64,000 bases of DNA from Podarcis cretensis (taxonomy: Eukaryota). Made by a program: the position numbers and the translations under genes. The stretch spans positions 21,948,001 to 22,012,000 of the forward strand of contig OX638160.1 of the NCBI GenBank assembly GCA_951804945.1, given 5' to 3'. Shown piece after piece: positions 27,801 to 30,800 of the stretch. How positions within the stretch are numbered: the first letter of the stretch is position 1; every line of letters starts with the position of its first letter. Under the pieces are notes generated by a model. The model ran no database searches and was not told the origin of the DNA. It worked only from the letters and a program-made list of their open reading frames with translations.

Positions 27801-30800
27801 GTCCAGGGGTCCTTTATCTTTACCTTTAGTGACCTCCCCTCCTGGCAGCACCATGTTCACTAGCATGGGAGGGGCAGAGGAGCTGTGGCTTAGTGATGTT
27901 GACTCCAGGCAGCTTTTTATGTTTTCAGCTCCCCTTTTAATTGGTGCTTTTATAATGTTGCTGGATTTTTGTGTTTCTTGTCCGTTTTAATCTTGCTATA
28001 GGTTTGTGGGGTGGTCAGCCTGGGTGATACTCATGAGTGTCCCTTATGAACTTGTGATCCAGTGTAGGGGATGGTAAAATGTATACGAGGAAACCAGCAA
28101 GATTTGTTGAGGTGAGAGCCACCTCCATCCTATGATCAGGTTGCGCATACATTTAAATGAAACCACCCTAAAGACACAATGCAGTCATACATTGGTTCTC
28201 AAACTTAATCCATTCCGGGAGTCTGATTGACTCCCCAAACCATTCAAAAACCAAGGCACAGCTTCCAATTGGCTGCAGGAGCTTCCTGTACTCAATCGGA
28301 AGCCACATTGGACAGGATTTACCATGATAGTTAGGAGTGCTTTAAGGTGGACCTGACCCCAAAAAAGGTGGTGTAACCCACCAATTCCCTGGGGATTAGT
28401 CTCTAGCCAATGGACCAACATACACAGAGCATAGGAAGCCACATTATGCCAAGTAGGACCAGTGGCCCATCCAGCTCAGTATCATCCACAACGATTTGCA
28501 GCAGCTCTCCAGGAGTTTAAACCAGGGATTTCTCCAGCCCTTCCTAGAGATGGGATGGAGTCTGAGAACTTTGGGATGCAAAACATGTGTTCTACCACAG
28601 AGCTACAGCCCCATCTCAGATCTTTGCCTCTGCCCATGGTGAAGCCACTGTTATGGCTCTAAAGAGCATTATGTACTCCCAGCTATAGTACAAACAAGAG
28701 CATGGTCTGAGGGCCCAAGATGGAGCCACCTTGCTAATGTAAATCAGGTCTATGTCTGCCTGGGTAGGAGACCACCTATGAAGCCCATTATGGAACCTCT
28801 GTGATGTCTTCAGTTTCATGATGGATGAAAGGTGGGATATAAACGTCCTAAATAAAAATAATAAAGAATGAAACCTATGCTACAAAGACATTGCTCTAAA
28901 ATTCATAGTTTCTAGATATTGGAAATTGCTCTGTGTTTTCTGAATAGTAGATCCTGTGTAAAAATTACAATGGTTTACCTAAGCATTAATGGTGCAGCAG
29001 CAATAAAATTGCTAGTCGCTTTGCAAAGCTAAGCAGGGTCCTACCTGGTTTCAAATTGGATGGGGAACTGTATTGCAGGGGATTGAACTAGATGACCCTC
29101 ATGGATCCTTCCAACTCTATGGCTATCTGAATATTTTGGATGCTATCTGAATACTGTAAATGTGGCTACATTATTTTTAACTGCATGGTGCTCCTTTATG
29201 CATTGATTTATTTTTAAATGGCTCCATTGTCACTCACTTGCTGATAAAGTCATTGAATTCAGATGACCATATCTCTGGCTGCCGCAATGTAGGAGGCGGA
29301 TTTCTGTGGAAGATGACATTAAAATAGGTTTACATGTAGAATTACAATAAGCTCGAATAAATTTTCAACCAAATAGAGTGAGAGAAGTCAAGCTGAGTAA
29401 TGGATTTCTGGAAGAGTCATTAAAAAATACACAGATTTCCTCTAGCTTAAAAGGAGAATTGTTTAGAAAAGTATAATGCACCACTGATTGTCTTAATGTT
29501 ATAAGTCTTTGGAAAAGGGGGATTTAAAATCTCTATCAAATAAATCAAGAACTGCAGTAATTTTATAGCATTCAAACAAAATAATACAACTAATGACCTA
29601 TTCATTAGTTGTATTATTTTGTTTGAATGCTATAAAATTACTGCAGTTCTTGATTTATTTGACCTATTCCTCACTGGAAGGACAGATTGTGAAGCTGAGG
29701 CTCCAGTACTTTGGCCACCTCATGAGAAGAGAAGACTCCCTGGAGAAGACCCTGATGTTGGGAAAGATGGAGGGCACAAGGAGAAGGGGGCGACAGAGGA
29801 CGAGATGGTTGGATAGTGTTTTCGAGGTTACCAGCATGAGTCTGACCAAGCTGCGGGGGGCAGTGGAGGACAGGAGTGCCTGGCGTTCTCTGGTCCATGG
29901 GGTCACGAAGAGTCGGACACGACTAAACAACAACAACAATGACCTATTCATCATTATTTATGTGTCATGGCAACTCCCCTGCAGTCCTAAAAGCAGTAGG
30001 CTTTACAATTCTTTGGTTTGCTAACACAGTCATGAAATTCAGTTGGATTAAATATCCTCTTGGAGTTCACTCCAGCCAATGACAAGAGGCTGAAATGGTT
30101 GAACAAGTTAATTTTGTTAAGGAAATGGGTCGGTGTTAAGTGTCTTCTTTGTTATGTAAGCCAGGGCCAGAGTGTTGCCACAGAAACTAAATGGTTGGAG
30201 ACAATTCTGGAAGGTGAACAAAAGAGTCCATGCGTTTTCTATCATCCTCCCCTGGCTGAAGTGATGCTATCATAGTGTCTATATGTGTTTGAGAGAGAAC
30301 AACAGACTTGCAGTCATGGAACTGGGTCTGAAAGAGACACAGAGAGGCTGTGAGTATCCAGTGTTATAGCACAGGGTGGGGGCACAGAGAAGCTTAATGG
30401 GGAAGTGGAATCTGTTGGAAAGTTGATGCTGTGAATCTTCGATCTTATGCTCACATATGAATATATGTGTAAATAAAATCACAAAAATGTCGTAAGACTC
30501 CAGTGACGTTCATTCCTAGGAAACCAACTCAGGGTACATACAGGGACTCTGTGAAACCTCTCATTAATGGGGGTACACATAAATATTGTCAGGTTACTTC
30601 TAATTCCATTAGGATCATAATCCACCTATTGGTCAATTGCATGGCCCATGAAGAATTCTTTAACATCTAAGAAACAGGTACATGTTTGGCATCACCACAT
30701 GGGCCTGTCTCTGCTCTTCAACTCCCATCATCCCTGACTAGCCATGTTGGTCCTACCACATTGACTGCTGCTAGTTTAAATGGTTAAATTGGCACCCAGC

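Follow-up and report, generated by a model that had tools for sequence, protein, structure and literature searches.

Retrotransposition of human L1 elements occasionally leaves an inverted copy of flanking DNA at the upstream end of the insertion. Three somatic L1 insertions (0.3%) have been described with a short fold-back inversion upstream of the target site, ascribed to a 'process C', and one further case has an added internal inversion (0.1%), giving a total of four with an added synthesis of 52-220 bp (PMC10191854); from the percentages given there we derive a denominator of about 1,200 L1 insertions. In two L1 insertions of a second report a small hairpin primed an inverted duplication that lies on the reciprocal end, and the target-site duplication (TSD) was kept; the examples in its Fig. 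4D,E are primed by 2 bp of homology (10.1101/2024.12.14.628481). Related processes are described for other systems. In yeast, fold-back priming by Pol delta is followed by unwinding and capture by end joining (PMC11724301, PMC10622511). Iterative templated insertions are made by Pol theta (PMC12426944), and the creation of miRNA hairpins in one step by template switching has been published (10.1101/2023.04.19.537475).

We describe a structure of this kind beside a Bov-B LINE within the window, by which we mean the whole 64-kb stretch of Podarcis cretensis DNA that was analysed. The reading that we consider likely is that a 5'-truncated Bov-B element inserted at this site, and that in the same single event fold-back self-priming and a further switch wrote 57 nt of flank again in inverted orientation and copied 7 nt of the target once more, leaving a hairpin that is probably functionless.

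Anatomy of the junction and its surroundings

At the center of the structure is a perfect palindrome. Its arms at 29536-29596 and 29602-29662 are reverse complements at 61/61 positions around the 5-nt loop CCTAT, as found by both a script and a repeat finder, and in this respect the original prediction of a 61-bp perfect fold-back was exact in sequence and position. The complementarity stops at both sides, with no further extension beyond 61 bp. The whole hairpin comprises 127 nt and the palindrome has a GC content of 24%. It is the sole perfect hairpin in the 64 kb with an arm of more than 25 bp at a loop of up to 30 nt, the runners-up having arms of 25, 20, 16 and 16 bp. When 29500-29700 is folded as RNA of the minus strand the predicted energy is -97.3 kcal/mol (z -19.3), and none of 200 shuffled sequences was equally stable. 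A second copy of the arm was sought within the window and none was found, the best other match being 19 nt long with E 0.03.

The palindrome is closely tied to the TSD. This is a direct repeat of 14 bp, with its 5' copy at 29592..29605 and its 3' copy at 29938..29951 (both on the + strand), identical at 14/14 positions. It begins with A and is preceded by T, and a Bov-B duplication is expected to have at least 10 nt and to start at T|A. The center of the palindrome lies inside the 5' copy, and it coincides with a 4-bp stem formed within the TSD by 29593-29596 with 29602-29605, the loop being 29597-29601. The TSD alone is predicted to fold in just this way, with a 4-bp stem, a 5-nt loop and its 3' end paired, at -1.0 kcal/mol and 68% of the ensemble, which bears out an earlier suggestion that the target itself can form a mini-hairpin. 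Five of 200 shuffles folded as well as the TSD. Arbitrary 3' ends in the window carry such a terminal hairpin in 3.2% of cases for loops of 3-8 nt (4,130/127,940), and this background is 2.1% for loops of 3-6 nt and 5.3% for loops of 3-12 nt. On either side of the TSD the two arms differ in origin. The left arm outside the TSD (29536..29591, + strand) is original upstream flank and, in our reading, the template; the right arm beyond the TSD (29606..29662, - strand) is a new 57-nt inverted copy of 29536-29592, and this copy sits between the 5' TSD and the Bov-B element. Among the 71 duplicated positions none differs, with an upper 95% bound on divergence of 4.1%.

The insert (29670..29937, + strand) corresponds to the final ~270 nt of a Bov-B LINE of lacertid type (RTE clade), with the C-terminal end of the ORF followed by a (CAA)n tail at about 29929-29939, of which the last two A are ambiguous with the start of the TSD. 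It is 88% identical to a longer element of the window at 40102-40876. The reverse transcriptase (RT) piece of that longer copy shares 92-94% identity with lacertid proteins and 81% with a muntjac protein, and matches RVT_1 with E 1.2e-6, just under the curated cut-off; the name Bov-B rests on this ruminant-squamate protein likeness together with the (CAA)n tail. Such a tail and a TSD that starts with A are described features of reptile Bov-B (PMC13295347, Table 4). A T-stretch about 10 nt upstream (Tn-TA) is given as a target signature, as a statistical trend that is not universal (PMC13295347), and at the present site no TTT occurs within 21 nt before the TSD. The element starts at 29670: the second copy aligns from there, and in 4/4 of the public runs considered below other copies extend upstream. 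Because other copies continue upstream of this point, the element is 5'-truncated. Of the loose ends that precede 29670, the most frequent one in 4/4 runs has another sequence, whose last base is G.

Between the right arm and the element there is a third, partial copy of the target (29660..29669, + strand), a direct repeat of 10 nt that corresponds to TSD positions 3-12. With this, the earlier coordinates of both the 14/14 repeat and the third copy proved correct. Three of its nucleotides are common to the end of the arm, and seven extra nucleotides, 29663-29669, complete it. When random 7-mers from the window were placed at the junction, a match of at least 10 nt to the target site (+/-25 nt, both strands) was obtained in only 5/20,000 trials, and we conclude that the third copy was templated. 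For a match of the whole insert the figure was 305/20,000. The patch has a 3-nt microhomology at one side and none at the other, there being no microhomology with the element at the junction 29669/29670. Its letters are known from the window sequence, since in the runs it is masked by reads of other Bov-B copies. A derivation of the seven bases from Bov-B itself was considered and is ruled out by the alignment of the second copy, which begins at 29670, and by the differing loose ends before that position; the patch is thus not element-derived. As a separate observation, the third copy together with the first four bases of the element (29660-29673) matches 29940-29953, i.e. the TSD and the start of the right flank, at 13/14 positions. 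This may reflect a hidden 3-nt annealing with one mismatch resolved to the cDNA, or it may be chance.

Focal and longer Bov-B copies (29670-29929 and 40608-40876) differ by 28 substitutions, with 10 A>G against 1 G>A. RNA editing was considered as a source of this skew and set aside, since the three tabulated A>G sites vary also in runs without the insertion. At these sites non-A letters make up 7-31% of the depth in all four runs, with G alleles from other copies, and because such alleles occur in other copies the skew probably reflects subfamily variation. In the longer copy (40102-40879) an in-frame stop splits the ORF and there is no TSD of more than 6 bp within the distances searched; it is likely to be older than the focal copy.

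The host gene is that for myosin-IIIa (MYO3A), on the minus strand. A motor-domain exon matches named MYO3A proteins at 94-96%, and the exons of a wall-lizard MYO3A can be located one after another along the window; by this mapping the insertion site falls within the intron that precedes the sixth of the exons in the window. The insertion is antisense to MYO3A and lies between an exon at about 31100-31249 and the nearest downstream exon, a kinase-domain exon of 66 nt at 29238..29303 (- strand, from the wall-lizard mapping). The acceptor of this sixth exon (AG 29305-29304, minus strand) is 232 nt from the end of the arm, in agreement with the roughly 230 nt proposed before. A sequence search of the PDB with the 21-aa exon returned no match.

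Seventeen retroelement-like copies in the window were examined for a perfect inverted repeat of more than 9 bp near an end, and only the focal copy has one (0/16 of the others). A SINE of ~350 bp with an ACCTTT-type tail, resembling Sauria SINEs, is present in eight copies (6794-7146, 11679-12049, 27449-27831, 38976-39231, 46733-46824, 47440-47789, 48391-48735 and 57574-57933), seven of which have TSDs of 10-15 bp and none a flank palindrome. Two LINE fragments, 9116-9653 and 62509-63127, which we take to be CR1-like by protein likeness, are 98-100% identical to each other and so indicate a second young retrotransposon family in MYO3A. An exact 47-bp duplicate (33924-33970 and 45098-45144, 11 kb apart) lies inside two related short elements, the second of which also contains a tandem pair of ~120 bp (45182-45290 and 45304-45409, 81%) and a palindrome with 16-bp arms (45408-45447). 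Self-complementary MITE-like repeats of at least two kinds occur at 12670-12827, 18099-18536, 19218-19372, 51173-51315 and 43211-43887, and are unrelated to the focal arm. At its gathering thresholds Rfam gives no match at the palindrome and only two weak tRNA matches elsewhere in the window, at 12865-12933 (+) and 20833-20904 (-) with 32 and 34 bits, which are probably the tRNA-derived heads of SINEs.

Empty and filled alleles

Of 24 public runs listed, 20 cover part of the stretch, none of them listed as RNA, which carries no implication for expression. Four of the 20 (X1, X4, X5 and X12) were compared at 29572-30600. X1 and X4 come from organism A, as different samples with the same species label, X5 from organism B and X12 from organism F. 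All four are assembled contigs, not raw reads, and the sequence of an empty site is read from the ends of pieces and from depth.

In X4, X5 and X12 a single contig spans the right flank, from 29943, 29943 and 29938 respectively, and carries 522, 523 and 778 further letters upstream. In an empty allele, a match to the left arm would stop at position 29943. The arm bin and the right-flank contig have the same depth value in each run (75.6, 21.2 and 13), and 29536..29591 is present once at single-contig depth. The depth of the first bin was observed to be 10.8, 3.02 and 0. If only one arm exists and is aligned in reverse on the right arm, covering a 5/35 or 0 share of the bin, the expected values are 10.8, 3.03 and 0; for a filled allele they would be 86, 24 and 15. 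These three runs fit an empty site having one arm, one copy of the target and no element.

The X1 run is different. One contig begins in the Bov-B tail at 29919, crosses the TSD and continues in the right flank, with 0 differences in all, and the first two bins have depths of 12.8/20.1, compared with 12.9/19.4 expected for a homozygous filled allele. They do not fit a heterozygote (7.3/15.3) or an allele lacking the second arm (1.6/11.3). The agreement requires that the arm is merged into the flank contig, as the pure-unitig expectation of 14.5/33.6 does not fit. X1 fits a homozygous filled allele, and may be the sample from which the window was assembled.

The palindrome and the Bov-B element therefore occur together in the window and X1, and both are absent in X4, X5 and X12. 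Since the empty samples have one arm and the filled sample two, the second arm goes with the insertion in these four runs, a set small enough for an intermediate allele to have been missed. The insertion is recent, because of the two samples of organism A only one carries it, and because there are 0/71 differences between the duplicated positions. The original prediction was that an empty allele would lack the right arm, and by piece ends and depth this is what we find in 3/3 runs without the insertion. Among the findings that it had named as counting against it, two can be set beside these data. A palindrome in species or alleles without Bov-B was not seen in any of the three empty runs, and the palindrome is not a multi-copy MITE, the arm having no other copy in the window. 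A MITE or fold-back DNA transposon was rejected as its source on this ground, and also because one arm is native flank in the empty alleles.

A probable single insertion event and its alternatives

An insertion is directly supported by the staggered target duplication, the (CAA)n tail, the truncation at 29670 and the empty alleles. For the duplicated flank we suggest the following path. After the staggered cut the upstream end would carry the 14 nt of the target as a 3' overhang, and the last four nucleotides of this overhang could have paired back over the 5-nt loop, in the manner of the predicted fold, to prime an extension that would run for 57 nt along the resected or displaced flank. The new strand would then unwind, and its terminal TGA could pair with the single-stranded bottom-strand copy of the target on the cDNA-bearing end, where it would be extended by 7 nt. 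Released once more, the strand would be joined end to end to the 3' end of the cDNA, with no microhomology, and second-strand synthesis would fix the junction. By analogy the fold-back might be extended by a host polymerase (Pol delta in yeast) and the short patch made by end joining of the Pol theta type. It is possible that the element's own RT was the writer.

Two aspects of the sequence bear on this path. The center of the palindrome coincides with the terminal hairpin of the TSD, for which the chance is 2-5% depending on the range of loops allowed. The 4-bp stem is suggestive of the priming step and not a requirement for it, because published L1 examples were primed by 2 bp. Two TGA triplets, 21 and 48 nt along, were already available to the growing strand before the switch at 57 nt; as both were passed, microhomology did not set the length of the copy. 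The order led by the top strand is the simplest, because both primings then have homology (4 bp and 3 bp) and the blunt step joins two free ends.

It is less probable, and on balance we think it unlikely, that the same insertion event was led wholly or partly by the cDNA strand, through template jumps of the RT. On such a path the 3' end of the cDNA would first be extended by 10 nt with the top-strand overhang as template. Pairing of 3 nt would then let it prime again on the flank, 57 nt upstream, and from there synthesis would continue as far as the nick before a jump onto the end of the overhang. In a hybrid form the fold-back would make the arm, and the cDNA would make only the third copy and then anneal to the terminal TGA of the arm. 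The fully cDNA-led path leads to an identical final sequence, and there are precedents: in R2 'snap-back' junctions the 3' end of the cDNA is considered to have primed on cDNA itself or, more rarely, on target DNA nearby (PMC11371274), and at zebrafish L2 5' junctions there are extra nucleotides templated from flank and/or LINE DNA (PMC4760211). Against this, the fully cDNA-led form makes the 4-bp terminal hairpin a coincidence of the 2-5% given above. Moreover both forms need a homology-free priming inside the target, because the element base upstream of 29670 is G and not C. A single junction gives neither the order or direction of synthesis nor the polymerase. The core of what was originally proposed, a snap-back of the target end, a copy of ~57 nt of flank and a switch at TGA, is supported by the empty alleles, the single-copy arm, the non-Bov-B patch and the TSD hairpin, while the order of the steps and the polymerase cannot be read from one junction.

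An improbable reading is that there were two events, an ordinary Bov-B insertion followed by a template switch during replication, which would have taken place at the short inverted repeat of the TSD and overwritten the former 5' end of the element with the second arm and the patch. Template-switch mutations are common and make perfect hairpins in one step (10.1101/2023.04.19.537475), and the original 5' extent of the element is not fixed by the sequence. This would however need a second rare event centered exactly on the end of the TSD, and with 71/71 duplicated positions identical and the insertion missing from the second sample with the same label there was little time for it. In addition, the structure is documented as arising in the same event for de novo L1 insertions (10.1101/2024.12.14.628481; PMC10191854).

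The remaining question is whether the hairpin does anything. The original prediction called it pre-miRNA-sized and saw in it a route to new hairpin RNAs and a possible influence on splicing of the adjacent exon. It would be transcribed within the MYO3A intron, with a fold predicted to be very stable on that strand, and new miRNAs arising from template switches are enriched in introns (10.1101/2023.04.19.537475). The preferred geometry of a pre-miRNA is a 35-bp stem with a loop of at least 10 nt (10.1101/2023.04.19.537475), and a hairpin of 127 nt with a 61-bp stem, a 5-nt loop and 24% GC does not have this geometry, so that we rejected a miRNA-precursor shape. The hairpin is not conserved, being missing from 3/4 runs, and in the predicted fold of the MYO3A transcript each arm finds its partner solely in the other, and the acceptor is 232 nt away. 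We accordingly regard a role as a new RNA element, either a precursor of a miRNA or endo-siRNA or a modifier of MYO3A splicing, as very improbable; the hairpin is probably functionless, and the ideas of a de novo hairpin RNA and of an effect on the exon find no support. As a long perfect duplex it could incidentally become a substrate for editing or dicing.

We give the least probability of all to a fold-back artefact of the assembly or library, or to a multi-copy MITE. Perfect palindromes are a known type of chimera, and the arm and patch are known from assembled sequence and not from read-level letters. Against this, X1 has single-copy depth over the loop. Nor would an artefact append a 7-nt copy of the target and end at the first base of the element. 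The left arm, finally, is plain flanking DNA that occurs once in each of three other samples and has no second copy in the window.

Comparison with known systems

Our preferred reading, a single Bov-B insertion with fold-back self-priming and a further switch, makes this an unusually clean and inherited case of a rare outcome of LINE integration that has been described mainly for somatic and experimental human L1. An empty allele is available for comparison, and the second templated patch suggests that the upstream end was primed twice before the cDNA was joined. The free-end remodelling model is thereby extended to an RTE-clade element in the reptile germline; as a single locus it changes no model. 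We are doubtful that Bov-B integration in lacertids routinely leaves perfect flank-derived hairpins in the germline. If it did, then with about 52,000 Bov-B matches in a wall-lizard genome (PMC13295347) and the L1 rate of 0.3-0.4% there would be of the order of a hundred such hairpins per genome. Double-stranded introns of unique sequence would then be raw material for new small RNAs and editing sites, and nested patches would constitute a large natural record of RTE 5'-end joining.

A Bov-B or germline precedent for an inverted duplication of the flank was sought in the open-licence PMC and bioRxiv literature and none was found, and the word 'inverted' does not occur in the reptile Bov-B study (PMC13295347). 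The closest relatives of the structure lie elsewhere. Like the miRNA hairpins that arise by template switching, it is a perfect hairpin for which unique intronic DNA was the source and a single event sufficed, but its trigger was retrotransposon integration instead of replication, and its stem is too long and its loop too short for the preferred shape. With the junctions of zebrafish L2, of R2 and of Pol theta it shares a short patch copied from next to the break, a primer with minimal pairing and iterative priming, whereas here the patch is stacked on a 57-nt fold-back, which exceeds the <25 bp usual for a templated insertion. Fold-backs at yeast breaks are similar in that a short inverted repeat close by lets a 3' end fold and be extended, after which the strand unwinds and the other end captures it, in yeast with 0-5 nt of microhomology (PMC11724301). 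In our case a retrotransposon made the break and a cDNA provides the capturing end, and dependence on Pol delta is shown in yeast only.

The L1 fold-back insertions are the nearest of all. They too have inverted upstream flank between the 5' TSD and the LINE, a small hairpin at the center and a TSD that is kept, and the 57 nt copied here falls within their reported 52-220 bp. The present locus differs from them in being an RTE-clade Bov-B that is inherited and apparently homozygous, where the L1 cases are somatic or experimental, in having a priming stem of 4 bp compared with 2 bp, and in the extra 7-nt re-copy of the target before the element, a feature unmentioned in the main-text accounts of L1 considered here. 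A re-copied target might already be shown in the figures or supplements of the L1 preprint (10.1101/2024.12.14.628481). The mechanistic novelty implied at the outset falls away, since human L1 already provides published cases in which a fold-back has duplicated the upstream flank in inverted form at the 5' junction of a LINE. The mechanism is not new, and this germline Bov-B case with its nested re-copy of the target extends the known L1 class.
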